A stretch of DNA of 42,841 nucleotides. Origin: a virus (lineage: Duplodnaviria; Heunggongvirae; Uroviricota; Caudoviricetes). Positions 1 to 36,000 of the stretch are shown here, in pieces. The translations under genes and the position numbers were made by a program. The notes below the pieces were generated by a model that was given only the letters and a program-made list of their open reading frames with translations, was not told the DNA's origin and did not search any database. Positions within the stretch are counted from its first letter, which is position 1; the number at the start of each line of letters is the position of its first letter. The DNA lies in the IMG/VR virus record IMGVR_UViG_3300030019_000001; one strand, given 5' to 3'.

Positions 1-391
1 TAACAAGTTTATCAAATGCAGAATAATTCACTTTACCAGTAAGTTGAATATAACCCCTTCCGCAATATTTATAACCATCACCAGATGCTTCATCTCCATT
101 ACCCATTCTATTTGCATATGCTCTACTCGCGATTTTATCTGGTTTTCTAGCATATGATTCATTCAACGTACCAGGAAAATATTTAGGAAATGTTGACTTT
201 AATGCAGCAGCAGAATAATTCAAATTTTCTTTCACTGCTGAAAAATTCATACTCTCATGAGCACACTGAGATAAAAAATGACACAATCTAAGTGATGTTG
301 TTATATTAAATTTTGTTGCAGTTTCAGGTATTTGTGCCAACACTACATCTGGAACGTGTCCTTTCAATTTATTAATAATGTTTTGGTCCAT
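1..391 (-). CDS. Glycoside hydrolase family 19-like lysozyme/chitinase (N-terminal ~130 aa; the C-terminus lies upstream of the window start)
   Basis: Reverse-complement translation from the ATG at about 391 gives MDQNIINKLKGHVPDVVLAQ...LCHFLSQCAHESMNF...YANRMGNGDEASGDGYKYCGRGYIQLTGKVNY. This reproduces the GH19 catalytic-core motifs (AHES, YANRMGNG, GDGxxYxGRGxIQLTG). It is not in the ORF track because it is truncated by the window edge. Confidence 0.75.
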   Translation of the reverse strand, partial: MDQNIINKLKGHVPDVVLAQIPETATKFNITTSLRLCHFLSQCAHESMNFSAVKENLNYSAAALKSTFPKYFPGTLNESYARKPDKIASRAYANRMGNGDEASGDGYKYCGRGYIQLTGKVNYSAFDKLV

Positions 392-482
392 AATTTATTT
401 ATTATTTTTTATATATAATGTATATATTATTTTTTTATTACATAAAATAGTTGTATATTTGCAAAATATAAAAACTGAAGTC

Positions 483-1393: not shown

Positions 1394-1729
1394 ATGAAAA
1401 AAGTTTATAAATTTGAAGAATATTATAATTACACAAATGATAAAGCTCCAACTTATAACATAGGAGATTATATTCTTGTTTCTAAACAATTAACGAAAAA
1501 AACATACCTAAAAGGCAAATTTATAATTGAAGAAATCGAGTATATAGACTATCTTGATGAATATCAATATGTTGCTTGGGATGGAGTAAAATCGCCAACA
1601 AATATTGGTCAAATTGCAATAATAAGTGGAAAAAGATGTGTATTAGATAAAGACATTAAAAGAAAACTCACACCAGCAGAAATTGAAGAATTTGAGGTTA
1701 GAAAAAATACAAAAAAATACAATATCTAA
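1394..1729 (+). CDS. Small protein, terminal-cassette family A (MKKVYKFEEYY... IGDYILV ... KNTKKYNI-stop)
   Basis: N-terminal MK..K.FE motif, K(V/I)GDY(V/I) motif, C-terminal KKYNI. Paralogous to 28082-28429 and 28426-28767. Confidence 0.6.
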   Translation: MKKVYKFEEYYNYTNDKAPTYNIGDYILVSKQLTKKTYLKGKFIIEEIEYIDYLDEYQYVAWDGVKSPTNIGQIAIISGKRCVLDKDIKRKLTPAEIEEFEVRKNTKKYNI

Positions 1730-1746: not shown

Positions 1747-2223
1747 TTATAAATTAAATTTTAAAGTATCTTTATAAAAATTAAAATGCTCCACATTCAC
1801 ATCAGAAATAATTTTGTTTATATCATTCTGTTTAATAACAGTTGAAAAACTATAATACTCGCCATAATCTTCTTTTGATGACATAAGATGTCTTAAAAAT
1901 AATAGAGCAGTGTTCCATTTATCTTTATGATATGTTTTTACTGATTTACCCCAATGAAAATCTATTTTAATATCAGTATTGTTGGTTATAGTAAAAAGAA
2001 TATAAAAAATAACATCAAATTCTGAAGTAGGATAACTAAATCTATTAATAGTTATCATATATTCATAATCAGGAGGAGAATTAGTCGAATAAAACAAGTT
2101 ACTATCAGCACTCTTCAAAAATTCAACAATTTTATCACCTAACTTAATTACTTTATAGTGAGTATCAAGGTGAGATAAAAATTCTTCAGTGTAGACTACA
2201 TGTTCTTCATATTTTCGAATCAT
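1747..2223 (-). CDS. Hypothetical protein with C-terminal ...KFNL (terminal-cassette group B)
   Basis: 158-aa ORF; C-terminus DTLKFNL-stop; start MIRKYEEH overlaps the stop of the upstream paralog via TGATTTATGA. Confidence 0.5.
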   Translation of the reverse strand: MIRKYEEHVVYTEEFLSHLDTHYKVIKLGDKIVEFLKSADSNLFYSTNSPPDYEYMITINRFSYPTSEFDVIFYILFTITNNTDIKIDFHWGKSVKTYHKDKWNTALLFLRHLMSSKEDYGEYYSFSTVIKQNDINKIISDVNVEHFNFYKDTLKFNL

Positions 2224-2226
2224 AAA

Positions 2227-2703
2227 TCAAATATTGAATTTTTTTGTATTATTTGAAAAATCATACTCCTTGATTGATAATTTTGTTATTAAATATGGGA
2301 TATCATCAATATCAACTGAACCACAAAAAGTATAATATTGTCCAGTTATATCATATGGTAAAAGTATATTTTTAATAAACAATAAGAATTTTTCACATCT
2401 TATCATATCTGTTATACTATTACCACTTTTAACTTCTATAGTAACATATGGATCATAAATAGAATATGAATCATATTCAACTAATTCAGATTCACAATTT
2501 TTAATCTCAAATGTAATGTAAAAAATTTTACTAAATGTATAATTGTCTTTATAAAAAATCAACTGATATTTATCATCTGAAAACCATTTTGATTCACAAT
2601 TAATATGCTCACCTTTCATTATATGTAAAAAAGTTCTAAGTATAGTTTTTGCTAATTTTTCTATATTATTATTTAAATTATACCTATTATAACTATCTAT
2701 CAT
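2227..2703 (-). CDS. Hypothetical protein with C-terminal ...KKFNI (terminal-cassette group B)
   Basis: 158-aa ORF of the same length as its neighbour; C-terminus NNTKKFNI-stop. Confidence 0.5.
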   Translation of the reverse strand: MIDSYNRYNLNNNIEKLAKTILRTFLHIMKGEHINCESKWFSDDKYQLIFYKDNYTFSKIFYITFEIKNCESELVEYDSYSIYDPYVTIEVKSGNSITDMIRCEKFLLFIKNILLPYDITGQYYTFCGSVDIDDIPYLITKLSIKEYDFSNNTKKFNI

Positions 2704-3500: not shown

Positions 3501-3585
3501 GATAATATTTTTTAATTATTAATTATATACAAAGATAATACTTAATCATGTGATAATCAAAAATGTTTTTATATTTTAAGAATTT

Positions 3586-4818
3586 TTAATCAATGTTACT
3601 ATTAATATACAAAGTCTCAACGTTTTTCAATTTTTTAGTTGACGTGGAGTCATCTTTATTATCATATATCACATCATTTTTCAATGAATTATCAACTTTT
3701 TTAGACTCATTATATAATTTTTCCATCACTAATTTATTATTTACTATAACATTATCTTCAAATAATTTTTCATTATTTAATTTATTATTTACTATAACAT
3801 TATCATCAAACAATTGTTCATTATTTAATTTGTTATCTGAAACTGCATTTTTATATAAATCTTCATTGGTTAATTTATTATTTACTATAAAATTATCATC
3901 AAATAATTTTTCATTGTTTAATTTGTTGCTCACTAAAACTTTACCGTCAAATAATTGTTCATTGATTAATTTGTTATCTGAACCTATATTTTTATATAAA
4001 TCTTCATTAGTTAATTTATTATCTAAAATTGTATTTTTATATAAATCTGCATTAGTTAATTTGTTGGTAGAATCTATATTTTTATATAAATCTGCATTAG
4101 TTAATTTGTTGGTAGAATCTATATTTTTATATAAATCTTCATTAGTTAAATTGTTGGTAGAATCTATATTTTTATACAAATCTGCATCAGTTAAATTGTT
4201 GGTAGAATCTATATTTTTATACAAATCTTCATTCACTAATTTGTTATCTGAACCTATATTTTTATACAAATCTTCATTCACTAATTTGTTATCTGAACCT
4301 ATATTTTTATATAAATCAGCATTTATTAATTTATTATCTGAACCTATATTTTTATATAAATCTTCATTTGTTAATTTGTTGACTGAATCTATATTTTTAT
4401 ACAAATCACTATTAGTTAATGAATTATCTATTTTATTATTATTGTATAATATTTCATTTTTTGGAGTTTTAATTATATCTATATTATTAAATAGTGATTT
4501 ATTACCTGGTGTTTTAATCACTGATACATTATTAAATACAATTTCTTTATTTGGTGTTTTATTCCTTTCTACAATCAATTCAGATTTTCCAGTCACATCA
4601 TCATTTACACCAAATTTATACATGGATTTATTTGGAGTATTGGTTCTTCCTGTGACAATCTCAGAATAACCTGTAACATCACCCAAATTTTTTATTCTGG
4701 TTATTTTTGAAACTGGTTGAGTATATACAGTTTCTTTATTCGGTGTTAATCCTAATAGTCCATGATTATTAACAATAATTTTATCAATTACATTATCATT
4801 TTTACTTTTTTTACCCAT
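3586..4818 (-). CDS. Tandem-repeat protein with about 20 copies of a 15-aa unit (consensus L-T-N-E-D-L-Y-K-N-I-D-S-T-N-K) plus degenerate N- and C-terminal repeats
   Basis: Translation shows NEDLYKNIGSDNKLV / NADLYKNIDSTNKLT repeated. The DNA has 45-nt tandem repeats. Confidence 0.7.
   Translation of the reverse strand: MGKKSKNDNVIDKIIVNNHGLLGLTPNKETVYTQPVSKITRIKNLGDVTGYSEIVTGRTNTPNKSMYKFGVNDDVTGKSELIVERNKTPNKEIVFNNVSVIKTPGNKSLFNNIDIIKTPKNEILYNNNKIDNSLTNSDLYKNIDSVNKLTNEDLYKNIGSDNKLINADLYKNIGSDNKLVNEDLYKNIGSDNKLVNEDLYKNIDSTNNLTDADLYKNIDSTNNLTNEDLYKNIDSTNKLTNADLYKNIDSTNKLTNADLYKNTILDNKLTNEDLYKNIGSDNKLINEQLFDGKVLVSNKLNNEKLFDDNFIVNNKLTNEDLYKNAVSDNKLNNEQLFDDNVIVNNKLNNEKLFEDNVIVNNKLVMEKLYNESKKVDNSLKNDVIYDNKDDSTSTKKLKNVETLYINSNID
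3633..4470. repeat. Coding 45-bp tandem repeat array (about 18-20 copies, most perfect around 3990-4400)
   Basis: Repeated ...tctatatttttatataaatct(g/t)cattagttaatttgttggtagaa... units are visible in the sequence. This produces the spurious antisense ORF 3593-4669. Confidence 0.8.
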
Positions 4819-5263
4819 TTCCGTTTAATTTTCTTTTCTTAATCATTTCTTCAATATATTGATCTGTAGGTAATTTAATATTTGGATCTATTTTTTTAAT
4901 AGTTTTATCAGAATTATCTTTAATACCTTCTTTTTCATTAATCTCTTTTACTATAGAAGCTAAATAATTTTCTGGACTCATTCTAGAATCATCATCAGTA
5001 TATATCATAGAATAAATAGTATCATCATTAAATATATAAAATTCTTTTGATGATAAAGTAAAATCTTGATAAAATATTAATTTTCCTATTGAACCATATG
5101 TCATAACTTGTGTACCTGTCATTTCCAAATATTTATTCATGAATGGATCTTTAATTCTAACAGTTTCTTGCTTCAAATCAATAAAATTAACACCCAAATC
5201 CATTTTAAATATTGGAATCTTTCTAAATATATTCAACATTTGTGTGTTTGATACTATTGTCAT
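4811..5263 (-). CDS. Hypothetical protein (150 aa)
   Basis: ORF with an ATG; 8-nt overlap with the downstream gene. Confidence 0.45.
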   Translation of the reverse strand: MTIVSNTQMLNIFRKIPIFKMDLGVNFIDLKQETVRIKDPFMNKYLEMTGTQVMTYGSIGKLIFYQDFTLSSKEFYIFNDDTIYSMIYTDDDSRMSPENYLASIVKEINEKEGIKDNSDKTIKKIDPNIKLPTDQYIEEMIKKRKLNGNG

Positions 5264-5814
5264 TGTGTATAAACATTATCTTTTAAATCATTTTGATCTG
5301 TTCCCTTATCATCTGATTTGTCTTTCAATTGACCTAATTTATCAATAATAAAATCTTCTTTTATATCTTCAACATCAACTTCTTCTACCAATTCACCCTT
5401 TTCTTCCATTTCATCATTGAATTGGTGAATTTTAAGCAATATTTTATTTATTTCTAATGCTTTACCTTCAGCTGGAGTTTCAACAGGAGCAGCTCCTTGT
5501 TCTTGTGATTGAGAATTATCAGAACCTTTCATCTCATCAAGTCTAACCATAAATATAACTCTATATCTAAAAAACGAATCCTCTTCTTCAGAATCTTTAT
5601 CTTTAGTTTCTTCAATAGGTTCAGAAAAATTAAAAATTAAAAATTTTTCCATTGGATTAGAATTTGAAATATCTATTTGTCCATCTAATGAGCAACCTTG
5701 AGCAGCTAATGAACCTTCATTAAACCATCTTTCAATTTGAGATTTCAATTCTTTAAAAAACACTGTTATTTTATAATCAGCAGATTCTACATATTCTTCA
5801 AAAAGTTTTTTCAT
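5260..5814 (-). CDS. Hypothetical acidic protein (184 aa, D/E-rich C-terminal half; N-terminus MKKLFEEYVES)
   Basis: ORF with an ATG; it carries the MK..FE-type N-terminus. Confidence 0.5.
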   Translation of the reverse strand: MKKLFEEYVESADYKITVFFKELKSQIERWFNEGSLAAQGCSLDGQIDISNSNPMEKFLIFNFSEPIEETKDKDSEEEDSFFRYRVIFMVRLDEMKGSDNSQSQEQGAAPVETPAEGKALEINKILLKIHQFNDEMEEKGELVEEVDVEDIKEDFIIDKLGQLKDKSDDKGTDQNDLKDNVYTQ

Positions 5815-5897
5815 TTATAATTATTATTATTTTAAAGTATATATAAAAAACACATCATAGAAAATAGTATAATTAAAAATTAATATATAATAGTCAT

Positions 5898-6221
5898 ATG
5901 AAACACATCAAATCATTTGAAGAAAAAATAAATAAAATATCAATAGATGAATTAAAAAATCATGGAATATCAAAAGATTCACCATTTTTGATTAGTGATA
6001 ATGAAAAATTACCAAAAGATACTAAATTTAAAATTGGAGATCATGTTAAAATAAATACAAATAACAATGAATATATCTACAAAATAGAATATTATTGTAT
6101 TGAAACTAAAAAATATACTTGCTTCATAACAATAGACACATTTTCAAGACAATGGATATATGAAGATGAATTAGAATTGGTTCCAGATTATGAAATATCA
6201 TCAAAAAAATTCAACATATGA
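5898..6221 (+). CDS. Small protein, terminal-cassette family A (MKHIKSFEE ... KIGDHVKI ... SSKKFNI)
   Basis: N- and C-terminal cassette; the stop TGA overlaps the next ATG (AACATATGAAA). Confidence 0.6.
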   Translation: MKHIKSFEEKINKISIDELKNHGISKDSPFLISDNEKLPKDTKFKIGDHVKINTNNNEYIYKIEYYCIETKKYTCFITIDTFSRQWIYEDELELVPDYEISSKKFNI

Positions 6222-6586
6222 AATATATTAAGAAATATGAGAACATAGATGAACATGTTAATGCAGAAGGTAAATTTTGGGAAATAAATACAGATGAACC
6301 ATATTTTGAAATCTCATTAAATAAACTTGGTTTTGATGAAGAGTTAAAGGAAAAAATATATGGAATGAATAACTCCTACATAAAAAATAGTGGATTAGTT
6401 TATATTTATATTATTAAAACAAATTTATCATACTTAGGCACATCAGTAACATGGAGTCATGTTACTGATTTCATAAAAGATACTGCAATAGAAAACGGTA
6501 ACAAATATATGGGAAAAGTTGAAATAACCGAAGATGATATTAAAAAATGGAATCTAATTAAAAAGACACAAAAATTCAACTTATGA
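6218..6586 (+). CDS. Small protein, terminal-cassette family A (MKYIKKYEN ... KKTQKFNL)
   Basis: Same cassette; ATGA overlap on both sides. Confidence 0.6.
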   Translation: MKYIKKYENIDEHVNAEGKFWEINTDEPYFEISLNKLGFDEELKEKIYGMNNSYIKNSGLVYIYIIKTNLSYLGTSVTWSHVTDFIKDTAIENGNKYMGKVEITEDDIKKWNLIKKTQKFNL

Positions 6587-7215
6587 AATACTTAAAAACA
6601 TATGAAGAAGGAATATCATCAGGTAATGCATCTGGAAAGGCAGGAGTAGGTTCGATTCCGTTTGGTAGAGGATATATGCAATCTGGTGGTAATAATGGAG
6701 CCAGTGGCATTGTATTCACTGCTGTTGGAGAACCATCATTCACCACATATAAAAGTATGAAGCATTCAAAAAAAGAATTAAAAGAGAAAAGAAGAAGACT
6801 TAGAATGTTCAAGAAATTCAGAAATGAAGGATTCATATCAGAAAAAATAGATGATTCTGGTTGGAATTGGGGAATAGTAAACAATGATAAAAATATTGGA
6901 AAATATATTATAATGAAAGATTCTGAAGAGTATTCATTCGCTTCAACCAAAGGAATAAGAAAAGAATTAGATACATTTGTTCAGAATAATACCGGAGAAA
7001 TAGTTTTATCAAGAAAATCAGCAGTTGGAATTTCTTATTTGATAAAATATGAAAATATACCAGACAATTTGAAAGAGCAATTTAAATCTTGCAATTTTTT
7101 AAATGATGAAGAAAATATATATTTACCTATAATAAAAAGACATAACAAAATTGAATTTATAGGTTCAAAAGAAGAATGTGAAATTAAAATATCAACAAAA
7201 AAATACAATATATAA
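6583..7215 (+). CDS. Terminal-cassette family A protein (210 aa; MKYLKTYEE ... Gly-rich GNASGKAGVGSIPFG ... ISTKKYNI)
   Basis: Cassette termini; shares the Gly-rich G..G.GSIPG segment with 7218-7610. Confidence 0.6.
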   Translation: MKYLKTYEEGISSGNASGKAGVGSIPFGRGYMQSGGNNGASGIVFTAVGEPSFTTYKSMKHSKKELKEKRRRLRMFKKFRNEGFISEKIDDSGWNWGIVNNDKNIGKYIIMKDSEEYSFASTKGIRKELDTFVQNNTGEIVLSRKSAVGISYLIKYENIPDNLKEQFKSCNFLNDEENIYLPIIKRHNKIEFIGSKEECEIKISTKKYNI

Positions 7216-7999: not shown

Positions 8000-8887
8000 T
8001 TATTTTTTATTCATATGAAAACAAATCTCGTTTAACCAACCACTTTTATATGATTTAGAATACGCACTAATAGATTTCATATAAAATTCAGATCTAGTCT
8101 TATATTTTAATGCTTCTATTTGACATAATTCTTTTGTCCAATAACCATTTGGTTTTACTAATGGTGTCATATGCAAACATATTTCTTTTAACCATTTATT
8201 TTTTAATGAAATTGTATATGCTGATGCTGATTGTTTTTTAAATTCAACTTTTGTATTAAATTTATTTGCTTCTATTTGACATAATTCTTTTGTCCAATAT
8301 TTTTTACCACCTGTTCCTCCTGTTTTACACTTATTTAAAATTTTCCAATCATTATTTTTATATTTATTAACATAATCCTCTTCTAATATTTTTGATAAAT
8401 AAACATCAATATATTCACTTAATTTTTTAAATTTATAATTATTATTTTTTTGTATATGTTCATAAACTGAGCCTTTTCTTAAATGTTCATTAAATCGTCT
8501 ATCTAAATCACAAGTCAATCCAATATATGCATAGTTATCAGAAAATTCATAAACATAAATACATCTTTTATATAAATCACCCATACACTTCATATGTGAG
8601 CATATTTCATCTATCCATCCATATATTAATGATTTACCATAAATATAACTTGAATTTTTCCTAAATTCATTTCTACTATTAAACTTCAAAGATTCTTTTT
8701 GACAAAAATCTTTTGTCCAGATATATGATTTATTTTTTCTCATATGAGCACAAACATCAAATATCCAATTATTTCTAATTGAGATTCCATATACTTGTTT
8801 ACATTTTATCCTAAATTCTTTTTTAGTTTTATATTTTAATGCTTCTTCAGTGCATTTTTCAATAGTCCATATTTTTTTATCTATCAT
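8000..8887 (-). CDS. GIY-YIG family endonuclease (homing-endonuclease-like) with two N-terminal and two C-terminal ~43-aa W.(K/E).C..E(A/S)LK(Y/F)..R.EF.......Y.....W..EIC.HM repeats
   Basis: Core CIYVYEFSDNYAYIGLTCDLDRRFNEHL (GIY...YIG...R...E). Repeats WTIEKCTEEALKYKTKKEF..., WTKDFCQKESLKFNSRNEF..., WTKELCQIEANKFNTKVEF..., WTKELCQIEALKYKTRSEF... Confidence 0.8.
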   Translation of the reverse strand: MIDKKIWTIEKCTEEALKYKTKKEFRIKCKQVYGISIRNNWIFDVCAHMRKNKSYIWTKDFCQKESLKFNSRNEFRKNSSYIYGKSLIYGWIDEICSHMKCMGDLYKRCIYVYEFSDNYAYIGLTCDLDRRFNEHLRKGSVYEHIQKNNNYKFKKLSEYIDVYLSKILEEDYVNKYKNNDWKILNKCKTGGTGGKKYWTKELCQIEANKFNTKVEFKKQSASAYTISLKNKWLKEICLHMTPLVKPNGYWTKELCQIEALKYKTRSEFYMKSISAYSKSYKSGWLNEICFHMNKK

Positions 8888-8983
8888 ATAAGTTATTTTT
8901 AAGTATATATTAAAAACTAATTATCATAAACTAAATAAAATAAAAATAATTAATTTTATATATAATAAAAATAATTAATTTTA

Positions 8984-12338: not shown

Positions 12339-12410
12339 ATATTATATTTTAATAATTGTATATATCTATTTACTTCACAAAGATAATACATTATTTTCAA
12401 ATATCAAAAA

Positions 12411-12729: not shown

Positions 12730-13923
12730 TTATTCTGAATAAATATTAGGATAAGATGTCAAATAATACAAATTTGATTTTTGCTTAATTAATATATCAT
12801 CTGAAGGTTGATAACCTAATTCACCATTATTAAATACCACATTATTAAATATACCACAAAAAAATAATCCATTATTTATTATTCCACCTGTCCAAAAACC
12901 GTTCCACCAAGCACCATTATTAAATACTCCGTCTGTCCATATACCCTCAAGCCAGGCTCCATTATTAAAATCACCGTTTAAATGAGTACCACCATACCAA
13001 GTACCATTATTCCAAGTGCCACCAGACCATATCGTTCTATTATGATTATCTGATATTGACGTTAATCCTGATTGAACATTCAATCCTGAATGAAATTCAC
13101 CGTTATAAAATGTTCCATCATGCCAAATAACAGATGGAAAATCCAATTCTGTTGTTCCTGACACAGGCCAAGATCCAAATCTACTTAGTATATTTGGATC
13201 TGTTTGATTAAATTCTCCTTTCCACCAATGGCAAGAAGATGATGATGAAGTACCCAATGATTGAACAACATTTGGATTACCAATAAAATCACCACCATTA
13301 AATTTACCTCCCCACCACTCACAACCTTGAAATGTACCATTTAAAAATGTACCATTAAGCCATTCACTATTATAAAAAATTCCATTTTTAAATATACTAT
13401 CTGTATCATAATAGCTCAGCCAAACAGAATTACGAAAAACTCCATTATGAAAAACTCCTGATTCCCACCTTGTGTCATAATAAATAATTTCACTGTTTAA
13501 CATTTGAAACCAATCTTCCTTTAGAATATCAGAACCAAAATAACCATTAAAAAATTCTCCTCTTCTCCAAATACCTCTTCTAAATTGTGAATATATTGGA
13601 TTATTTTTCTCTATAATTCTAATATTTCTTTGTAATAATTGATTTGTATCAAAACGATATGAATAAAATTTACCATTCTTCCACTCACCATCTTCCCATA
13701 TACCAGAATACCATGTACCATCTTCCCATTCACCTGCTTTCCAAGTACCAGAATACCAAACCAATCCATAGTCATCTTGACCTATTATTGCATTTTCAAT
13801 AATTGCATTCAATAACCAAATATATTTTCTTTTAATAATATCTGGTGTTAAACCATCAATCATAACACAATTTAATAATGCATCAGAATAATTGGTTATA
13901 TTATAAATATTTGTTGTTGCCAT
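12730..13923 (-). CDS. Trp/Gly-rich repeat protein (MORN-like G.W..G.F.NG units repeated more than 15 times)
   Basis: WYSGTWKAGEWEDGTWYSGIWEDGEWKNGKFY ... GVFHNGVFRNSVW ... NGTFLNGTFQGCEWWGGKFNGGDF ... GGTWNNGTWYGGTHLNGDFNNGAWLEGIWTDGVFNNGAWWNGFWTGG. Confidence 0.6.
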   Translation of the reverse strand: MATTNIYNITNYSDALLNCVMIDGLTPDIIKRKYIWLLNAIIENAIIGQDDYGLVWYSGTWKAGEWEDGTWYSGIWEDGEWKNGKFYSYRFDTNQLLQRNIRIIEKNNPIYSQFRRGIWRRGEFFNGYFGSDILKEDWFQMLNSEIIYYDTRWESGVFHNGVFRNSVWLSYYDTDSIFKNGIFYNSEWLNGTFLNGTFQGCEWWGGKFNGGDFIGNPNVVQSLGTSSSSSCHWWKGEFNQTDPNILSRFGSWPVSGTTELDFPSVIWHDGTFYNGEFHSGLNVQSGLTSISDNHNRTIWSGGTWNNGTWYGGTHLNGDFNNGAWLEGIWTDGVFNNGAWWNGFWTGGIINNGLFFCGIFNNVVFNNGELGYQPSDDILIKQKSNLYYLTSYPNIYSE

Positions 13924-14011
13924 ATGAACCTATATATAAAAAAAGTTCATTTAAAATAAAACATATATTAAAATAATAACTAAATAATAAAAATTAAATT
14001 AGAATATAAAC

Positions 14012-17540: not shown

Positions 17541-17614
17541 CTATAAACTTTATTTCTTTTGTTGTATATATTAAAAATAAATTATATATTTACAATCTAA
17601 TAAAAATACATCAT

Positions 17615-28081: not shown

Positions 28082-28429
28082 ATGAAATATTTAAAAAATT
28101 TTGAAAATGAATTAACCACTGAATATAAAGTAGGTGATTATGTATCAATTAACTATGATACAAAATCTAACACATTAACAAAGTTGAAGGATTTTGTGAA
28201 TAATTCGATAGGAAAAATAATGTTTATTGATGATAAAAGTATGATTATTCAATATGTTAATATTCCAGATAAAATAAAACATTTTTTTTCTGATAAAAAT
28301 GTTGGAAAAGATAAAATAAAAAATTCTGTATTTTTTTGGAATAAAAATAATACAATAAAAAGATTAGCAACAGATGATGAGATAATAGAATATGAAGCAA
28401 TTAAAAATACAAACAAATTTAACATATGA
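28082..28429 (+). CDS. Small protein, terminal-cassette family A (MKYLKNFENELTTEYKVGDYVSI ... KNTNKFNI)
   Basis: Cassette termini; close paralog of 28426-28767. Confidence 0.6.
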   Translation: MKYLKNFENELTTEYKVGDYVSINYDTKSNTLTKLKDFVNNSIGKIMFIDDKSMIIQYVNIPDKIKHFFSDKNVGKDKIKNSVFFWNKNNTIKRLATDDEIIEYEAIKNTNKFNI

Positions 28430-28767
28430 AGCACTTAAGATTATTTGAAAGCCAACTAAAGCCTAAATATAAAGTAGGAGATTATGTTCATTTAGATATG
28501 GAGCCAGATTTTACTTATGATGATTGCTTAGGACAAATACTTAAAATAGATAAAAACGGATTCATAAACGAACCTGAAGAAACAGATTCAAATAAAAAAC
28601 ATGATAATTATATTAACACATTAAATCTTTACCCATATAAAGTTAAAATATTGGATGGTAAATTCGATGCTGAAGAAGGCTTAATAGATAGATATATGAA
28701 AAAAGATGAAATAGAATATTTTGAGTATTTATTAAAGAATAAAGATACTAAAAAATTTAACATATGA
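28426..28767 (+). CDS. Small protein, terminal-cassette family A (MKHLRLFESQLKPKYKVGDYVHL ... KDTKKFNI)
   Basis: Cassette termini; ATGA overlaps on both sides. Confidence 0.6.
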   Translation: MKHLRLFESQLKPKYKVGDYVHLDMEPDFTYDDCLGQILKIDKNGFINEPEETDSNKKHDNYINTLNLYPYKVKILDGKFDAEEGLIDRYMKKDEIEYFEYLLKNKDTKKFNI

Positions 28768-29542: not shown

Positions 29543-29887
29543 TTATATATTAAATTTATTTGTAGTGAATAAAAAATTCAACTCATCAAAAGTTTTTATC
29601 ATCCAATTATTTCTATTAGCCCATTGGTGATCATTGTATTTGTGTATTACAATATCTAATCTATCGTTGGCTAATTCAATTGTAGTAAAACTTTCAATGT
29701 TGGTATTTTTCTTTTTAAGGATATCTATATTACTTGAATCAATTTTGTCAGTAAGAACAAATTCTTCAATTCCAAGAATTATTTTATATAATATAAAATA
29801 ATCTCCTTCATCTGGTTTGAATAAAACTAAGAAATATTTTTCTTTTTCTTTTTTTCTTTTAAATATATTAAATTTTTCAATTATCAT
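29543..29887 (-). CDS. Terminal-cassette group B protein (about 115 aa from ATG MIIEKFNIFKRKKEK...; ends FTTNKFNI). The track ORF extends to a TTG at 29932, through a duplicated copy of the start region.
   Basis: C-terminal KFNI; the N-terminus lies inside a 52-bp tandem duplication. Confidence 0.5.
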   Translation of the reverse strand: MIIEKFNIFKRKKEKEKYFLVLFKPDEGDYFILYKIILGIEEFVLTDKIDSSNIDILKKKNTNIESFTTIELANDRLDIVIHKYNDHQWANRNNWMIKTFDELNFLFTTNKFNI

Positions 29888-29950
29888 AATTATATATTTT
29901 CTTTTTTCTTTTAAATATATTAAATTTTTCAATTATCATAATTATATATT
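29856..29950. repeat. Two direct copies of a 52-bp unit (ttttcttttaaatatattaaatttttcaattatcataattatatatt) duplicating the 5' end and start codon of gene 29543-29887
   Basis: Copy 1 is at about 29856-29898 and copy 2 at about 29908-29950. Each contains the reverse-complement ATGATAATTGAAAAATTTAATATATTTAAAAG. Confidence 0.8.
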
Positions 29951-30373
29951 AAATTTTCTTGTTGATATTATCCATGATGGAGTATAATTTACAGCATTTA
30001 AAAATAAATAGTATGAAAAAATGAAATATGAACTTTTCCAAACCAGTGATGTTTTATTTGTATATTCTTCTATTTCATAATATAATTTTGGTGTTTCTTC
30101 TATTTTCGTTATCACAGAATCTAATGTATATTTTTTTACTTCTCTTTGTATTTTTTTATTTGTTTTTTTATTATCTGTTTTCCAAATATATGGATATTTA
30201 TACATAAATATTAATAGTGCGAATTCATCATAACAAGAATATGGTATACCTCTATATGTGAAACTATCAGTTATATTTTCTTCATATTTCTTTTTATATA
30301 TTTCTTCATAATTATTTAGAAATTTTTCAGTATCAGAACTAATTTTTATAGAGGAATTTATTTTTGAGTTCAT
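29942..30373 (-). CDS. Hypothetical protein (143 aa) ending ISTRKFNI (terminal cassette)
   Basis: ORF with an ATG; C-terminal KFNI immediately followed by the duplicated start region of the next gene. Confidence 0.5.
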   Translation of the reverse strand: MNSKINSSIKISSDTEKFLNNYEEIYKKKYEENITDSFTYRGIPYSCYDEFALLIFMYKYPYIWKTDNKKTNKKIQREVKKYTLDSVITKIEETPKLYYEIEEYTNKTSLVWKSSYFIFSYYLFLNAVNYTPSWIISTRKFNI

Positions 30374-30455
30374 ATATTATTTTTATTTATAATTATATTT
30401 CGCAAAGATACAAAAAAAATATAACCTTTACTAATAATTATCATCTTTTATATTA

Positions 30456-30893
30456 TTATAAGTTGAATTTATTTGAGATTCTTGTTAAATTCATTTCATT
30501 GATTACTTTTTTCTGTTTTTCTGTAATATTACCATAAATAGTAAATGATGATTTATTGTCAACATGGTAAATATAATTATCATTTGTAGTTAATATTAAT
30601 GATAATAGAACAAATATTCTTTTCTTGTGTTGTAAAGTGCCTTGATATCCAGTCGTACACTCTGTTATGGTGTTGATTCTACCTTTAACTATTTGAGGTA
30701 CATCTATAAAAATATTTTTTTCTTTATCATAACAATTCTTACAATTAAATTCAACTAATGTATCAACTATCAACAAATTACTAAGAAATTTTTTAATTTT
30801 CGTGTAACTACCAGAATAGTAATTTAACAAATCATTTAGTATGAATGTTGTTTCGGTTTCTGTATTTTCAAATATTTTGAAATTTATAATCAT
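30456..30893 (-). CDS. Terminal-cassette group B protein (MIINFKIFENTE ... EFNCKNCYDKEKN ... TIYGNITEKQKKVINEMNLTRISNKFNL)
   Basis: Clear paralog of 31308-31727 (same N-terminus, CxxC, TIYGNI and C-terminus). Confidence 0.6.
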   Translation of the reverse strand: MIINFKIFENTETETTFILNDLLNYYSGSYTKIKKFLSNLLIVDTLVEFNCKNCYDKEKNIFIDVPQIVKGRINTITECTTGYQGTLQHKKRIFVLLSLILTTNDNYIYHVDNKSSFTIYGNITEKQKKVINEMNLTRISNKFNL

Positions 30894-30894
30894 A

Positions 30895-31311
30895 TTAATT
30901 AATTTTTTTCCTTAAATAATTAAAAACAATTTCAAAAAATATCAGTTTAATTGAAAATGCCAACATAACAAACCAAATAGATGTATTCAATGTGATTATA
31001 ACAGATGCAAGAATCATAGTTATTTCAGATATAAACCAAAATAAATGCCATGCATCAGTAAACACAACAAAAATAGTAGTACTTCCTATGAATTTTTCTC
31101 CATTTAATGGATTGGCATTTTTATATTTATTGAGAGACCCCAATCCTTGTTCCCAAAATTTTGGATTTAATTTATATTTTAAATATAATCTTGACTTGTA
31201 AAATAAATTAGGAGAAGATGATATATCAGTTATAGATTTAGATATACCAGATATTAATAATAAAAAAAGTATTATTAAAATGTTTAAAATTGCTGAAGTA
31301 GTTAGTATCAT
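30895..31311 (-). CDS. Predicted multi-pass membrane protein (138 aa) embedded between two group B paralogs
   Basis: Hydrophobic segments MILTTSAILNILIILFLLLISGI and ITMILASVIITLNTSIWFVMLAFSIKLIFF; its start overlaps the KFNI-TGA of the upstream gene. Confidence 0.5.
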   Translation of the reverse strand: MILTTSAILNILIILFLLLISGISKSITDISSSPNLFYKSRLYLKYKLNPKFWEQGLGSLNKYKNANPLNGEKFIGSTTIFVVFTDAWHLFWFISEITMILASVIITLNTSIWFVMLAFSIKLIFFEIVFNYLRKKIN

Positions 31312-31727
31312 ATGTTAAATTTATTTGCTTGTCTTTTTATATTAATATCATTTATTATTTTTTTTATATCACCAGGAATATTTCCATAAATTGTCATCTG
31401 AGAATTTGTGTCTACTATATGACTAAATTTTATTCTTTTCAATCTCAATGTTAAGTATATATGTTTAAGATCATAATTAAATCCATAACTTCTACCGTTT
31501 ATAATTCCTTTATGATGTTTATTTGAATGTATAAAATTTGTAACACCATTTATATCATCTGTACATTTATTACAATTAAATTCAACAATGTTATTGTTGA
31601 AATTAAATAATTTGAAAATGAAATTTCGTATTGAATCTTCATGACTATCAAAGTAATCTACAATATCATCCAATACCAATGTGACTTTATCATCTGAGTT
31701 CTCGAATAATTTGAATTCTGTTATCAT
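31308..31727 (-). CDS. Terminal-cassette group B protein (MITEFKLFENSDD ... EFNCNKCTDDING ... TIYGNIPGDIKKIINDINIKRQANKFNI)
   Basis: Paralog of 30456-30893. Confidence 0.6.
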   Translation of the reverse strand: MITEFKLFENSDDKVTLVLDDIVDYFDSHEDSIRNFIFKLFNFNNNIVEFNCNKCTDDINGVTNFIHSNKHHKGIINGRSYGFNYDLKHIYLTLRLKRIKFSHIVDTNSQMTIYGNIPGDIKKIINDINIKRQANKFNI

Positions 31728-31741
31728 GCTGATATATATAA

Positions 31742-32920
31742 TTATTTGAATTTGTTTTTTAATACTTGATATTGAGATTTAACAGAATAATAAGACCTAT
31801 TTAATTTTTTAGCACAACATTTTATTCCTATATGATAATTTTCAATTAAAAAAATAATATCATCTTCTGGCCATGAATTTTTTCTTTTTTTTGCTATCAT
31901 ATGAGAGCATATATCTTTATACCATTCATTTTTAATTGCAGATGCTGCTGCACTACTATTGTTTTTTAGAAAATCATCTTTATAAATATATTTTGATGCC
32001 TCGTATTTACATTTTTCATATGTCCAAAATTTAGCAGATCCTCCTAATGTACTTTTTTTGTTAGTATTTAATAATTTCCAATTATTATTTTTGTATTCAT
32101 TCATATAATATTCTTCCAATTTCTGTGCTTCTGATTTATTAATATAGTCAGTTAATTGTATCAATTTATATTTATTGCTTGCTTTTTGTAAATGTTTGTA
32201 AATTGGACCTTTTTTAATATGCTCCTGCTCTCTAATTTTTATATTATATGTCAATCCAATATATGCACAATTATCATCAAATTCAAAAGCATAAATACAT
32301 CTAAATTCTTTACTACCAATTTTTATCATATGTGAACAGATATCATTAGATATATTATTTACATTTGAAAAATTATAAGCACCTCTATATTTTTTTTGAA
32401 AATCATTTCTACTATTACACTTTAATGCTTCTTCTTTGCATTTATCATAATTCCAATAATTATTAACATAAGTCATATGATTACAAATTTTTTCTATCCA
32501 TTTTTTTGAAATAGATATTCTATATGCACTAGCATCATTTTTTCTAAAATCAGTTCTGGTTAAATATTTTAATGCTACTTCTTGACATTTTTCTATTGTC
32601 CAGTAATTATTAGGTTTATGACTTAAATTCATATGAGAACAAATACTATTTAGCCAATTATTTTTTAATGACTTATTATATGCAGTTGCTTCATTTTTTT
32701 GAAAATCTGATATAGAATTATAATTTAATGCTGCTTCTTGACATTTATTGTGTGTCCAATGTCCTGGAGTATTAATTTTATATTTCATATGTGAACAAAC
32801 AATATTTAAATATTTATTTTTTACACAAGCATTATATGCTAAATTATCTAATTTTTTAAAATCACTTCTATATTCATATTTTAATGCTGCTTTTTGACAT
32901 ATTTCTAATGTCCATTTCAT
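31742..32920 (-). CDS. GIY-YIG family endonuclease (homing-endonuclease-like) with four N-terminal and one C-terminal ~43-aa W..E.C..(A/E)AL.Y..R.DF.K...AY.....W...IC.HM repeats and a C-terminal helix-turn-helix-like tail
   Basis: Core FRCIYAFEFDDNCAYIGLTYNIKIREQEHIKKG. Repeats WTLEICQKAALKYEYRSDF..., WTHNKCQEAALNYNSISDF..., WTIEKCQEVALKYLTRTDF..., WNYDKCKEEALKCNSRNDF..., WTYEKCKYEASKYIYKDDF.... Tail NSWPEDDIIFLIENYHIGIKCCAKKLNRSYYSVKSQY. Confidence 0.8.
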   Translation of the reverse strand: MKWTLEICQKAALKYEYRSDFKKLDNLAYNACVKNKYLNIVCSHMKYKINTPGHWTHNKCQEAALNYNSISDFQKNEATAYNKSLKNNWLNSICSHMNLSHKPNNYWTIEKCQEVALKYLTRTDFRKNDASAYRISISKKWIEKICNHMTYVNNYWNYDKCKEEALKCNSRNDFQKKYRGAYNFSNVNNISNDICSHMIKIGSKEFRCIYAFEFDDNCAYIGLTYNIKIREQEHIKKGPIYKHLQKASNKYKLIQLTDYINKSEAQKLEEYYMNEYKNNNWKLLNTNKKSTLGGSAKFWTYEKCKYEASKYIYKDDFLKNNSSAAASAIKNEWYKDICSHMIAKKRKNSWPEDDIIFLIENYHIGIKCCAKKLNRSYYSVKSQYQVLKNKFK

Positions 32921-33089: not shown

Positions 33090-36000
33090 ATGAAAATTGC
33101 TCACTTAGCTGATGTTCACATTAGAAACCTTGAAAGACATGAAGAATATAATGATATTTTTCAAAAAATAATAAAAAAATTACGCAAAATTACACCAGAT
33201 AGAATTGTTATTGTTGGTGATTTATTTGAAAGTTATATTGAAATTTCAAATGAAGCTGAAATTATAGCTGGAAATTTCTTAAATGAATTATCAAAAATTG
33301 CTAAAGTTATAATAGTTCGTGGTAATCATGATATTCGTAAGAAAAATTTAAATAGAATCGACAGCATAGAAACTGTAGTTAAACTAATGAATAATCCAAA
33401 TGTTACTTATTATGATAAAACTGGATTTTATGATGATAAGCAAGATAACAATTTTGTTTGGGTTGTTTATGAACACTCAGATAAAGACAACGATCCATGG
33501 AAAAATATTAAAAAATATGATGGTAAAATATATATTGGGTTATTTCATGACCCAGTTTTAAATGTAACATCAAATACTGGTAAAGTTTTTAATGATGCAA
33601 ACAAGTACAAAAATATGAATTATTTTAATAATAATGATTTTGTGCTAATAGGTGATATCCACAAGCGTCAGTATTTAAGAAATGATAAATCTGCTGCATA
33701 TTGTGGCTCAACTATACAACAATCATATGGTGAAACAATTGAAAATCATGGTTTTTTATTATGGGATATAAAATCACCATCAGATTTTGATGTCACTGAA
33801 TATGATATTGACAATGAACACACTTTCATAAATCTTTATATTGATGAATCATCAGATTATGACAATTTAAATTTGTCTGCTGATAAAATTGGAACAGATA
33901 CTGAAATTAAAGTTCATTGGAAAGAATATTCATCAATTATAAATACTGTTAATGAAAAGAAAATAAGAGATTATATTAAAAATAAATTTAGCACAACTAA
34001 AGTTATTTTTGAAAAAGTTTATTTATACACAGATATATTATCATCAAAAATGCTATCAGAATCAATTGATTTGACTGATACTGAAACACAGAAAGAAATA
34101 TTTAATGAATATTTAGAAGAGCAAAAATACAAAAAAGATGATATTGAATCTATTCTTAAAATTGATGATATAATAAATAGTAGAGTTCAATTGGTAGAAT
34201 GCTTAAAAAATACTGAATGGAGTATTGATAAATTCTGGTTTAGTAATTTTAAATCTTATGGAGATGATAATGTTATAGATTGGGCTGATATTAATGGAAT
34301 TGTACAAATTCATGGAGAAAATCAGGAAGGTAAAACAACTATTTTAGATGCACTTACTTATATTCTTTATGGTAAGACTACGACAACATTAAGTCCTGAA
34401 AAATTTGGAGATTCAAGATATATAAATAACAAAAGAGATTTAGATTATGTTAATGGTGGTGCAATTATTAATTCAAATGGTAATAAATTCGTTATTCAGA
34501 GAAAGACAGAAAGAGTTTGGAATAAGAATCACACGGCATTAACAAGCTGTCCTACATCATTGGATTTTTATAAAAGCGAGAATATTTGTGAAGAAAATAA
34601 ATTAACAGATGAAATTAAAGCTAAGACTCAAAAAGAATTGGACTCTATTTTAGGAGATTTGAAAGATTTTATTAGATTGTCATTCACTAATGCTGATAAT
34701 TTAAATGATTTATTATCAGAAAATAGAAGTGTATTTATGGATAACATCATCAGAGATGCTGGTTATGATATTTTTGAAATTAAATTGAATGAATTTAAAG
34801 AATATAAAAAAGAATTAGTAGAAGAAAAATTAATAGTAAATATTCAAGATTCTGAATCTCGTGTGAAAGAATTGAATACTGAAATTATTGATATTAAAGA
34901 TATTATTGATACTAATAATTCTGATATTGAGAAGCATGAAAAAGAATTATCTGATTATAATACAGATAGAGATAATTTAAATAAAAAATTAAATAATATT
35001 GATTTATCAATGTTAACTTTTAATGAAGATTTAAATTTGAATACCATCAACAATTATGAATCTAAAATTGAAGAATCTAAAATTCAAAGCACAATTTTAG
35101 ATAGAGACATTGATAAATTACCTACTGAATTCGATTCATCTAAACTTGATGAATATAAAATTAAATTGAAGCAAACGAACTTGAAAATTTCTGAACGAAA
35201 AGATGAAATTTCAAATTTGAAAACTTCATTATTAGAATCTGATAATAAAATAGATAAAGTTAATATTAAAATTGATGAATTAAAACAATCTGAAATTAGA
35301 AAAATATCATCAAAAATAAATGCAAATGATTTACAAATTGAAGTTATTAAAAATAATAAATCTAATATCATAAAGGATGAAATAAAAAAAATAACATCAG
35401 AAATTCAAGAATTAGAATTAAATTTAAAAGAATTATCATCTAATATAAAATTATTACAAAAAGATGGAGTTAACGCTAAAAATTCAAATGAGGAATTAGA
35501 TAAAGAAATAGAAACATTCAAAAATTCAAAATCTTGTCCTAGCTGTGGTAGAGATTATGATAAAAATGATCCAAAATATTCAGAACACTTAGCTCATTTA
35601 GAAGATAAAATTAAAAGTCTTGAAATTAAAAAAGAACCAAATTCTTTGATAATTAAAGATTGTATATTAAAGTATAAAGATTTAAAAAATGAATCTATTG
35701 AATGTAATACAAATATTCTTAATTTGGAAGACATGAAAAAAAGGTTAATTCAAGGAGAATACCCTGATGATATATTATCTAAATTGAAAGAAATTGGTAG
35801 CAGTAAGAAGTTGACTCAAGACAATTTAGATTTAAATAAATTAATAGAAAAAATTGAGAATAACATATTTGATGAATCTGAAACATTAAATGAAAATATT
35901 GAGAAAGGGAAAGAACTAATAAAAAACATAGAAAAAGGCAAATTAGATACATCAATTGTAATAAAAAATATTGAGTCTGAATTGAAAAATTTTAATGTTG

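Follow-up and report, generated by a model that had tools for sequence, protein, structure and literature searches.

The window analysed here, a 42,841-nucleotide stretch of a tailed-phage genome (Caudoviricetes; IMG/VR record IMGVR_UViG_3300030019_000001), contains on its minus strand, at 3586-4818, a gene for a 410-residue protein made largely of tandem 15-residue repeats. We could establish that this is a genuine protein-coding gene, that its product belongs to a previously undescribed, phage-restricted family, and that the repeat array gains and loses whole units in frame and undergoes concerted evolution. As to its role, we tentatively favour an extended, flexible and multivalent late protein of tunable length, which would form a fibre or whisker of the virion or otherwise face the envelope.

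Results

A reading made from the sequence alone had described about 20 tandem 15-residue units in this gene, with a regular 45-nucleotide period over about 700 bp of similar DNA and more degenerate repeats on both sides. This description holds up well. About 21 units can be counted in register, which account for about 79% of the protein (about 11 degenerate units flank 10 near-perfect ones), and the consensus proposed for the unit is correct. No strand had been given; the coding strand of the repeat gene is minus. The gene is laid out as follows.

3586-4818, minus strand: complete repeat-protein gene, 410 amino acids plus stop codon, from the listing of open reading frames
4720-4818, minus strand: N-terminal region, residues 1-33, with the family signature …NVIDKIIVNNHGLLGLTPNKE…, single copy in the window
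4564-4719, minus strand: residues 34-85, N-proximal and poorly repetitive (DVTG… and …TP.K units), from register and alignment
4420-4563, minus strand: three degenerate "KTP" units, residues 86-133 (KTPxNxxφ[FY]NN…), from register
3970-4419, minus strand: core array of 10 near-perfect 15-residue (45-nucleotide) units, residues 134-283, LTNEDLYKNI[GD]S[DT]NK, from Tandem Repeats Finder and the unit table
3736-3969, minus strand: five variant units of 15 or 16 residues, residues 284-361, of the LNNE[KQ]LFDDNVIVNNK type, from Tandem Repeats Finder (period 48) and register
3589-3735, minus strand: about three degenerate terminal units and the conserved C-terminal end, residues 362-410 (…KNVETLYINSNID), from register and alignment
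4032-4138, minus strand: overlapping pair of 62-nucleotide perfect direct repeats (offset 45), the longest exact repeat of the gene
4209-4311, minus strand: overlapping pair of 58-nucleotide perfect direct repeats (offset 45), which holds the breakpoint of the one-unit deletion in the relative L003

Tandem Repeats Finder reported a period of 45 nucleotides at 3817-4420 (13.3 copies, 81% matches, score 571) and a period-48 array at 3707-3977 (5.7 copies), which combine to about 714 bp of repeated DNA. Pairwise nucleotide identity among the core units is 67-98% (mean 83%), and the G+C content of the repeat region is 21-22%, compared with a window average of about 23%. The degenerate flanks consist of KTP units on the N-terminal side and LFDDN-type units on the C-terminal side, both in register. 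The KTP type is also found in the orthologs from L010 and L011, and in many other members the region matching residues 34-85 holds units of about 30 residues (RNKTP…PP[FY]T.F.DYDN). The 410-residue protein ends in …ETLYINSNID.

The coding nature of 3586-4818 is established by comparison with relatives. The sense reading frame is kept in orthologs from more than 12 lineages, and the unit period always corresponds to whole codons (14, 15 or 16 amino acids across the family). Relative to the closest ortholog, that of L010, the ratio of nonsynonymous to synonymous substitution rates (dN/dS) is 0.41 for the whole gene; the non-repeat N-terminus taken by itself gives 0.52 and the C-terminal tail 0.55. 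The gene recurs with 100% nucleotide identity in three independent assemblies (L001, L002 and L004). A plus-strand open reading frame at 3593-4669 (358 amino acids) was rejected as a gene because relatives do not keep it: in most of their lineages no antisense frame stays open for more than 62-148 amino acids, while the sense frame is intact. Since the repeat is free of stop codons, we can regard this reading frame as a by-product. The relative L008 carries an in-frame TAG at 2395-2397, at a unit position where other units have Leu (TTG). The repeats run on in frame past this codon, which truncates the database protein P0016 and may stem either from an error in sequencing or assembly or from a nonsense mutation of recent date.

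Searches with the whole protein returned little. Pfam, PHROGs, NCBIfam and PDB sequences gave no significant match, and 50,697 deposited phage genomes contained no match to the family, even by tblastn with three members, some of them less Asn-rich; megablast of the window against deposited phages was equally negative. Neither the full protein nor the family alignment retrieved relatives in word-seeded searches, probably since low-complexity words filled the limit of 8000 candidates. An exhaustive phmmer search of 1.84 billion representatives gave 37 matches, about nine of which are short fragments of true relatives (P0015, P0016, P0018, P0020, P0025, P0027, P0028, P0032 and P0042); the others were rejected as unrelated low-complexity repeats from eukaryotes and bacteria. 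Three further proteins with similar 15-residue units on other domains (P0014, P0031 and P0034) have sub-threshold Pfam matches only (Pentapeptide_4, LED_rpt) besides DUF2341/LamG, and offered nothing transferable. The exact 410-residue product was reported absent from a collection of 15 billion proteins, despite identical 410-residue gene calls on L001, L002 and L004; low-complexity repeat proteins appear to be under-indexed in that collection.

An alignment of the N-terminal region was far more productive. A whole-protein scan of IMG/VR gave no match; the N-terminal alignment succeeded instead and recovered 12 IMG/VR loci together with 25 metagenome loci, the longest locus-bearing contig among those returned being 242 kb. 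The same motif alignment found no family locus in 185,579 cellular genomes, and the members came exclusively from metagenomic contigs of huge phages. Full-length orthologs span 321-908 amino acids and share one architecture. A conserved N-terminal region of about 30 residues carries the motif [VI]-I-D-x-[IL]-[IV]-[VP]-N-N-H-x-x-L-x-x-[TK]-P, in which I11, D12, N17, N18, H19, L22 and P26 are invariant among 15 family members. It is followed by 15-51 units of 14-16 residues, with periods sometimes mixed inside one protein, and by a conserved C-terminal end (…K.L[YF]xNSN). Homologs with other repeat numbers, which the sequence-only reading had proposed to look for, are thus at hand. The protein-weighted unit profile reads L(-6) x [NDG] E(-3) x [LV](-1) [FY](0) x N(+2) [IV](+3) [DT] x x N(+7) x; about six of the 15 positions are conserved, and information peaks at the aromatic residue (3.3 bits), N+2 (3.2), φ-1 (2.8), E-3 (2.4) and L-6 (2.2). 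Family members are acidic (isoelectric point (pI) 4.1-5.4), Cys-free, nearly Trp-free and Asn-rich.

The array changes by whole units. The L003 allele (395 amino acids, 1188 nucleotides) equals the 410-residue gene minus exactly one 45-nucleotide unit; the two genes share a prefix of 565 and a suffix of 681 nucleotides, which leaves an ambiguity zone of 58 nucleotides, and the breakpoint falls within a 58-nucleotide perfect direct repeat. This is the only deletion mapped at the nucleotide level. The proteins of L025, L028 and L046 have 352, 412 and 427 residues (steps of four and one units) and those of L012 and L014 have 352 and 367 (one unit), with upstream flanks that are 100% identical within each set. 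L022 and L032 encode proteins of the same length with different internal units. Every length variant seen stays in frame. These unit numbers were taken from short-read assemblies; simple assembly collapse is unlikely since the longest exact repeat (62 nucleotides) is much shorter than the assembler k of 141 given in the contig names. Several short contigs (L005-L007) stop at the gene or a little way into it, and many relatives are present in databases as fragments, which fits repeats and polymorphism breaking assemblies.

The idea that the near-identical DNA repeats are recombination hotspots is supported by these whole-unit differences between near-identical genomes and by the breakpoint in a perfect repeat. 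Concerted evolution, also proposed from the sequence, is equally apparent: Tyr occupies the aromatic position in 10/10 NxDL[YF]KN units of the window and Phe in 6/6 units of the L010 ortholog, the Tyr/Phe preference is reversed between the two in a second unit type, and the nearest unit lies within the same protein for 161 of the 261 units in ten proteins compared. With its L010 ortholog the repeat protein shares 55% identity, compared with 76-94% for most neighbours (one 158-residue paralog: 52%). At similar dS, its non-repeat ends show a dN/dS of about 0.5, compared with 0.05-0.14 for adjacent genes (partner A, 0.07; partner B, 0.14; NUDIX, 0.05; DnaJ, 0.13). The array changes by slippage or unequal recombination at the perfect repeat tracts, in whole in-frame units, and gene conversion homogenises the units. 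Gain and loss together with homogenisation let length and sequence diverge far faster than the flanking genes.

From the gene overlaps and conserved order we infer a translationally coupled operon (A, B, repeat) in which the repeat gene comes third, with the following upstream features.

5260-5814, minus strand: partner A, 184 amino acids, acidic; 4-nucleotide ATGA-type overlap with partner B, conserved synteny
4811-5263, minus strand: partner B, 150 amino acids; its stop codon overlaps the start of the repeat gene by 8 nucleotides
5838-5850, minus strand: promoter-like element TTTTTTATATATA, 23 nucleotides upstream of the first ATG of the operon

Each of the 14 related loci examined has homologs of A and B ahead of the repeat gene. 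Overlaps were measured in 11 loci: A and B overlap by 4 nucleotides in 10 of them, B and the repeat gene by 8-14 nucleotides in most. Partner B is 46-89% identical across the family, and a distant homolog occurs in the 735-kb phage LR756501. Neither partner matches PDB sequences, Pfam or NCBIfam; for partner B a weak match to phrog_471 was obtained with 4 of 13 members (best E-value 8e-4). No intrinsic terminator was found after the repeat gene.

The promoter-like element is a recurrent feature of the window. With at most one mismatch, TTTTTWATATATA occurs 28 times (8.8 expected), a number reached by none of 100 shuffles. The seven exact copies are all intergenic and oriented toward the downstream gene.

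5838-5850 (minus), 13931-13943 (minus), 17565-17577 (minus), 19881-19893 (plus), 8904-8916 (minus), 405-417 (plus) and 25402-25414 (minus): exact copies of TTTTTWATATATA

The genes behind these copies include virion-type genes at 12730, 15387 and 19911; a 717-residue protein (weak PHROG match to "virion structural protein", E-value 0.0015), a 1417-residue protein and a Trp-rich 397-residue protein are among the products of genes preceded by the element. By eye, a TTTTATATATA core lies about 20-35 nucleotides before the start codon of A in 11 of 11 related loci, eight of which were flagged by a regular expression. Judged by this pattern, the element is probably a phage promoter class common to virion genes, so that expression of the operon would probably be late. 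Another motif, TATCTTTG, was rejected as enriched (5 matches, 4.4 expected) and kept as a hint. It fits the Bacteroidota -7 promoter consensus (TAnnTTTG) and stands upstream of three genes (3530-3537, 12378-12385 and 30403-30410, all on the minus strand). These sites are compatible with the Bacteroidetes host predicted for phages larger than 634 kb.

Peptidoglycan hydrolase genes adjoin the operon or lie nearby, and their types at this locus are listed here.

2-409, minus strand (window): partial GH19 lysozyme-like (endolysin-type) gene, which runs off the left edge of the window
11678-12505 in L021: Amidase_2
6512-7219 in L047 (LR756501): Amidase_2

The Amidase_2 gene (275 amino acids, Pfam E-value 1.2e-9) starts 6-19 nucleotides after the repeat gene on the same strand and is found downstream in L020, L021, L022, L029, L030, L031, L032 and L033 (at least five lineages). 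From its sequence, the C-terminus of the 275-residue amidase looks like a peptidoglycan-binding domain. In the window, L010 and L011 no amidase follows the repeat gene; a GH19 lysozyme-like gene stands just beyond NUDIX. The partial copy in the window is 89% identical (tblastn) to L010 13830-14624, a gene that matches Pfam Glyco_hydro_19 (4.4e-7), and is a candidate non-orthologous replacement for the amidase of the other lineages. LR756501, which belongs to the genomes larger than 634 kb reported as Mahaphages and predicted to infect Bacteroidetes (PMC7162821), has homologs of A (201 amino acids) and B (168 amino acids) with the amidase directly after B, and no repeat gene. Given the placement of the amidase in these lineages and in LR756501, the ancestral unit looks like A-B-(repeat)-endolysin. 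We infer that the repeat protein is functionally linked with both partners, A and B, as well as with the endolysin locus.

The repeat protein, A and B contain no transmembrane segment (maximum 19-residue Kyte-Doolittle mean 0.23-0.81, compared with 2.76 for a membrane control), no signal peptide and no lipobox; Cys is absent from every family member. Since they lack a transmembrane segment, and a lipobox as well, we can eliminate holin or spanin roles for all three.

AlphaFold2 was run in monomer mode with shallow alignments. From the single sequence it gave a mean predicted local distance difference test (pLDDT) of 30.7 and a predicted template modelling score of 0.15; with a 10-row alignment the mean pLDDT was 34.9 and no secondary structure appeared. 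In the two runs 405-410 of the 410 residues scored below 50. In a charge-hydropathy plot all ten members tested lie on the disordered side of the Uversky boundary, and the 150-residue, 266-residue, NUDIX and 717-residue neighbours on the folded side. Periods of 14, 15 and 16 residues are mixed within proteins, indels are spread over more than one position of the unit, and whole lineages have Pro in place of Leu-6. These features argue against a continuous coiled coil and are awkward for a rigid solenoid; a multimeric fibre that folds only on assembly may be compatible with them.

Specific folds were rejected as well. A right-handed (pentadecad) coiled-coil stalk does not fit the mixed units, the absence of helices in the AlphaFold2 alignment run, or the Pro or Gly in every unit of some lineages (for example the L030 unit DKHTEPNETLFENV). 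A pentapeptide-repeat beta-helix, with its five-residue A(D/N)LXX period, is opposed by a 5-4-6 instead of 5-5-5 spacing and by the lack of any Pfam pentapeptide match at E <= 0.1 for the window protein and 15 members. By inspection, the spacing of conserved residues does not suit EF-hand-like or RTX calcium-binding loops, beta-clamp motifs or SSB-tail motifs.

Discussion

According to the reading that we tentatively favour, the product would be extended and flexible, not a compact monomeric beta-solenoid. Its conserved N-terminus would hold it, possibly to partner B or to the virion, and the array would present a tunable number of identical aromatic/acidic motifs, such that unit number would set reach or valency. 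Several points weigh against a fibre, whisker or envelope-facing factor of this kind. Placement of the protein in the virion or at the cell envelope is conjectural. Most phage fibres carry a C-terminal receptor-binding or trimerisation domain, and none was found in the repeat protein; nor did we find similarity to any known structural protein. The low AlphaFold confidence, coming from shallow alignments in monomer mode, cannot separate disorder from an obligate oligomeric fold. A dN/dS of about 0.5 might arise in a dispensable protein whose constraint has relaxed, and need not point to adaptive variation. The promoter-like element also precedes a GIY-YIG endonuclease gene, and the "late" assignment depends solely on this shared element. 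Finally, the unit-number differences are those of short-read assemblies.

A rather unlikely but serious alternative is a disordered, multivalent late protein that is not part of the virion and acts with the endolysin or the envelope, in lysis or its timing, or by sequestering a partner of host or phage origin. The operon shared with an Amidase_2 endolysin in at least five lineages, and the GH19 substitute near the window gene, are consistent with this role, as non-orthologous endolysin replacement is typical of lysis loci. The disorder signature and the tolerance of unit shuffling and of changes in unit length also agree with it, and sequestration would use about 20 identical E-x-φ-[YF]-x-N motifs, whose roughly six conserved positions in 15 recall short linear motifs. 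However, tail-fibre genes often stand ahead of lysis cassettes, and an endolysin neighbour is just as typical of them. Neither the repeat protein nor A or B has the membrane or export signals sought above, we know of no lysis factor that resembles the repeat protein, and the outgroup LR756501, with A, B and amidase but no repeat gene, indicates that the protein is not required for that module.

The sequence-only reading had suggested a beta-solenoid or fibrous protein. In such a structure, each 15-residue unit would form one coil of a rigid solenoid, or the chain a trimeric beta-fibre such as a triple beta-spiral, and rod length would follow unit number. The regular period speaks for this fold, as do the conserved aliphatic residues (L-6, φ-1, φ+3) and the Asn residues at +2 and +7, from which Asn ladders might be built; conserved ends around a variable middle resemble fibre architecture. 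The unrelated P0014 and P0031, which have a similar D-x-[YF]-K-D-I 15-residue unit, show a clear beta-like alternation and sub-threshold pentapeptide matches. Distant jumbo-phage relatives of the window phage, PTm1 and PTm5, are described with head fibre-like appendages (PMC8643167); as these phages have no detectable homolog of the repeat gene, their appendages show only plausibility. Nevertheless, we consider a rigid solenoid or defined beta-fibre unlikely. Structure prediction gave no repetitive fold (pLDDT 31-35, no strands in the alignment run), hydropathy lies below the folded-protein boundary in every member tested, no family match was found, and units of three lengths occur together with indels at several positions and Pro at -6 in whole lineages. 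In addition, the 5-4-6 hydrophobic spacing fits neither the pentapeptide pattern nor that of the triple beta-spiral (adenovirus shaft consensus), and there is no C-terminal head or trimerisation domain. The absence of a predicted repetitive fold weakens the solenoid idea without refuting it, given that the homologs still carry repeats.

It is distinctly unlikely, though worth stating, that the family represents something new in kind: either a class of megaphage late proteins that act with the endolysin of the same operon as a tether or as an envelope-disrupting or -binding factor, or an oligomeric fibre fold with Asn ladders that would be new. In the first case, the protein could be a tether or envelope factor, long, acidic and multivalent, in phages of Bacteroidota-type hosts, for which we know of no spanin-like outer-membrane step. 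In the second, the Asn-ladder fold would be one that neither PDB nor Pfam represents.

An internal head or scaffold-type acidic protein of the giant capsid, maybe cut into acidic peptides by a prohead protease, is very unlikely. T4 core proteins are cut into peptides by such a protease, gp21, which cleaves (I/L)-x-E sites. The repeat protein is acidic, Cys-free and of low complexity, the operon follows a late-type promoter, the conserved N-terminal segment could serve as a targeting sequence and, by analogy, the conserved Glu of each unit (L-x-x-E) could be a protease site. But Leu would be at P4 instead of P3 as in T4, no capsid, portal or protease gene adjoins the repeat gene, and a scaffold would normally be helical and conserved, unlike this fast-evolving protein with its non-helical prediction; the proposal is pure analogy.

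Last, the regular DNA repeats with their perfect 58-62-nucleotide tracts, the two strands open at the gene and the fairly high dN/dS might suggest that the DNA itself functions (as iterons or as a packaging or recombination site) and that the reading frame is incidental or a dispensable, decaying passenger, but this view is hardly credible and largely refuted: unit DNA differs strongly between lineages that keep the amino-acid skeleton and whole-codon periods, the non-repeat termini are conserved down to lineages whose partners are only 46% identical, translational coupling to partner B is conserved, and it is the sense frame, not the antisense frame, that relatives and length variants preserve.

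Megaphage genomes consist largely of genes of no known function, and one such open reading frame now stands as a defined family of clear architecture. It has a conserved operon of three or four genes (A, B, the repeat protein and an endolysin), a candidate late promoter and a length shown directly to vary rapidly. Should the protein prove to be a virion fibre or to face the envelope, unit number would be a parameter of host interaction that the largest known phages can tune naturally. Near-perfect repeats of 45 nucleotides break short-read assemblies and seem to hide the protein from word-indexed searches, which makes the family easy to miss.

Other features of the window

The window is AT-rich and of jumbo/megaphage character, and exact copies of its flanking proteins occur on contigs of up to 711,471 bp. 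It also encodes a DUF5675 protein and NUDIX, DnaJ and GIY-YIG genes. A 1251-residue fusion of an Mre11-like phosphoesterase (Metallophos) with a Rad50/SbcC-like ATPase containing a long coiled coil (33090-36845, plus strand) distantly matches Microcystis phage Mel-JY01, Tenacibaculum phages PTm1, PTm5 and pT24, Sphingomonas phage PAU and metagenomic huge phages. This fusion is the best marker tying the window phage to PTm1, PAU, Mel-JY01 and the LR7565xx huge phages.

Two further genes are repetitive. A 546-residue collagen-like protein (37712-39352, minus strand) has long G-T-S/G-T-N/G-T-D triplet arrays (Pfam Collagen, 1.2e-31); its DNA repeats at 38387-38863 and 39128-39250 have periods of 9, 18 and 99 nucleotides and a G+C content of 35%, and the gene is the second recombination-prone repeat gene in the window. 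The Trp- and Gly-rich protein of 397 residues (12730-13923, minus strand) has short G-x-W/W-x-x-G repeats with 15/30/45-nucleotide DNA periodicity, no family match, and 62-85% identity in relatives; its gene lies behind the same promoter-like element. GIY-YIG proteins are encoded at 8000-8887 (minus strand; Pfam 2.1e-5) and, as assigned by sequence inspection, at 31742-32920 (minus strand). Both are flanked by repeated modules of about 45 residues (W-T-x-E-x-C-x-x-E-A-x-K-[YF]), and related phages have a longer, 614-residue version.

Of the 49 open reading frames in the window, twelve share the C-terminus …K[FY]N[IL]; the N-terminus of most of these is MK-x-[IL]-K-x-[FY]-E-like, and they often stand in tandem.

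1394-1729 (plus), 1747-2223 (minus), 2227-2703 (minus), 5898-6221 (plus), 6218-6586 (plus) and 6583-7215 (plus): reading frames ending in K[FY]N[IL]
28082-28429 (plus), 28426-28767 (plus), 29543-29932 (minus), 29942-30373 (minus), 30456-30893 (minus) and 31308-31727 (minus): the remaining six

By their termini, the twelve look like a large multigene family with conserved ends. The N-terminus of partner A (MKKLFEEY) resembles those of this group, which may be akin to the capsid-targeting sequence of T4 internal proteins. A 52-nucleotide direct repeat at 29844-29950 (two copies, 98% match) overlaps the 5' end of the reading frame at 29543-29932 and the short gap before that at 29942-30373.

Comparison with known systems

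Triple beta-spiral fibres (adenovirus shaft, reovirus sigma1, PRD1 P5) also have an N-terminal attachment segment followed by variable units of about 15 residues, and the pseudo-repeat of the repeat protein has this length (15 residues; 14-16 across the family). The triple beta-spiral consensus has alternating hydrophobic residues and a fixed Pro/Gly turn. The repeat unit appears to differ from this consensus, with conserved hydrophobic residues at -6, -1, 0 and +3 and no fixed Pro or Gly. Moreover, the repeat protein has no C-terminal knob and ends in a degenerate unit, with nothing after …LYINSNID, and it has no sequence or profile similarity to these fibres and no ordered AlphaFold2 fold. 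The whiskers of T4 (fibritin, wac) follow the same plan of N-terminal anchor, segmented repetitive rod and a conserved C-terminal element that is very short. Fibritin, an accessory fibre that is expressed late, is an alpha-helical coiled coil with a foldon. In contrast, units rich in Pro, Gly and Asn and mixed periods of 14, 15 and 16 residues rule out a continuous coiled coil for the repeat protein, and no homology to fibritin was found.

Beta-solenoids with coils of 12-16 residues (insect antifreeze proteins, ice-nucleation protein) and pentapeptide beta-helices likewise consist of many short units with conserved Asn and aliphatic positions. Such short-coil solenoids are usually modelled readily by AlphaFold2. 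The repeat family differs from them in having no Cys or Thr ladders, no Pfam solenoid match and a pLDDT of 31-35. Disordered repeat proteins of the variable-number tandem repeat type share in-frame gain and loss of units, homogenised units and a charged composition of low hydropathy. Classical contingency loci switch on and off by frameshift, whereas changes in the repeat gene keep the frame and alter length only.

In the tail and surface proteins of phages, collagen-like tandem repeats (PMC3368898) and the tandem BACON domains of crAssphage (PMC6949934) are examples of coding repeats that act as evolutionary hotspots and vary in copy number. The unit described here is neither a G-X-Y triplet nor a folded domain of about 80 residues and has no Pfam model; Pfam Collagen, which detects the 37712-39352 gene, does not match the repeat protein. 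Tandem coding repeats as hotspots in phage surface proteins are thus already known, whereas this family, its repeat unit and its operon are newly described.

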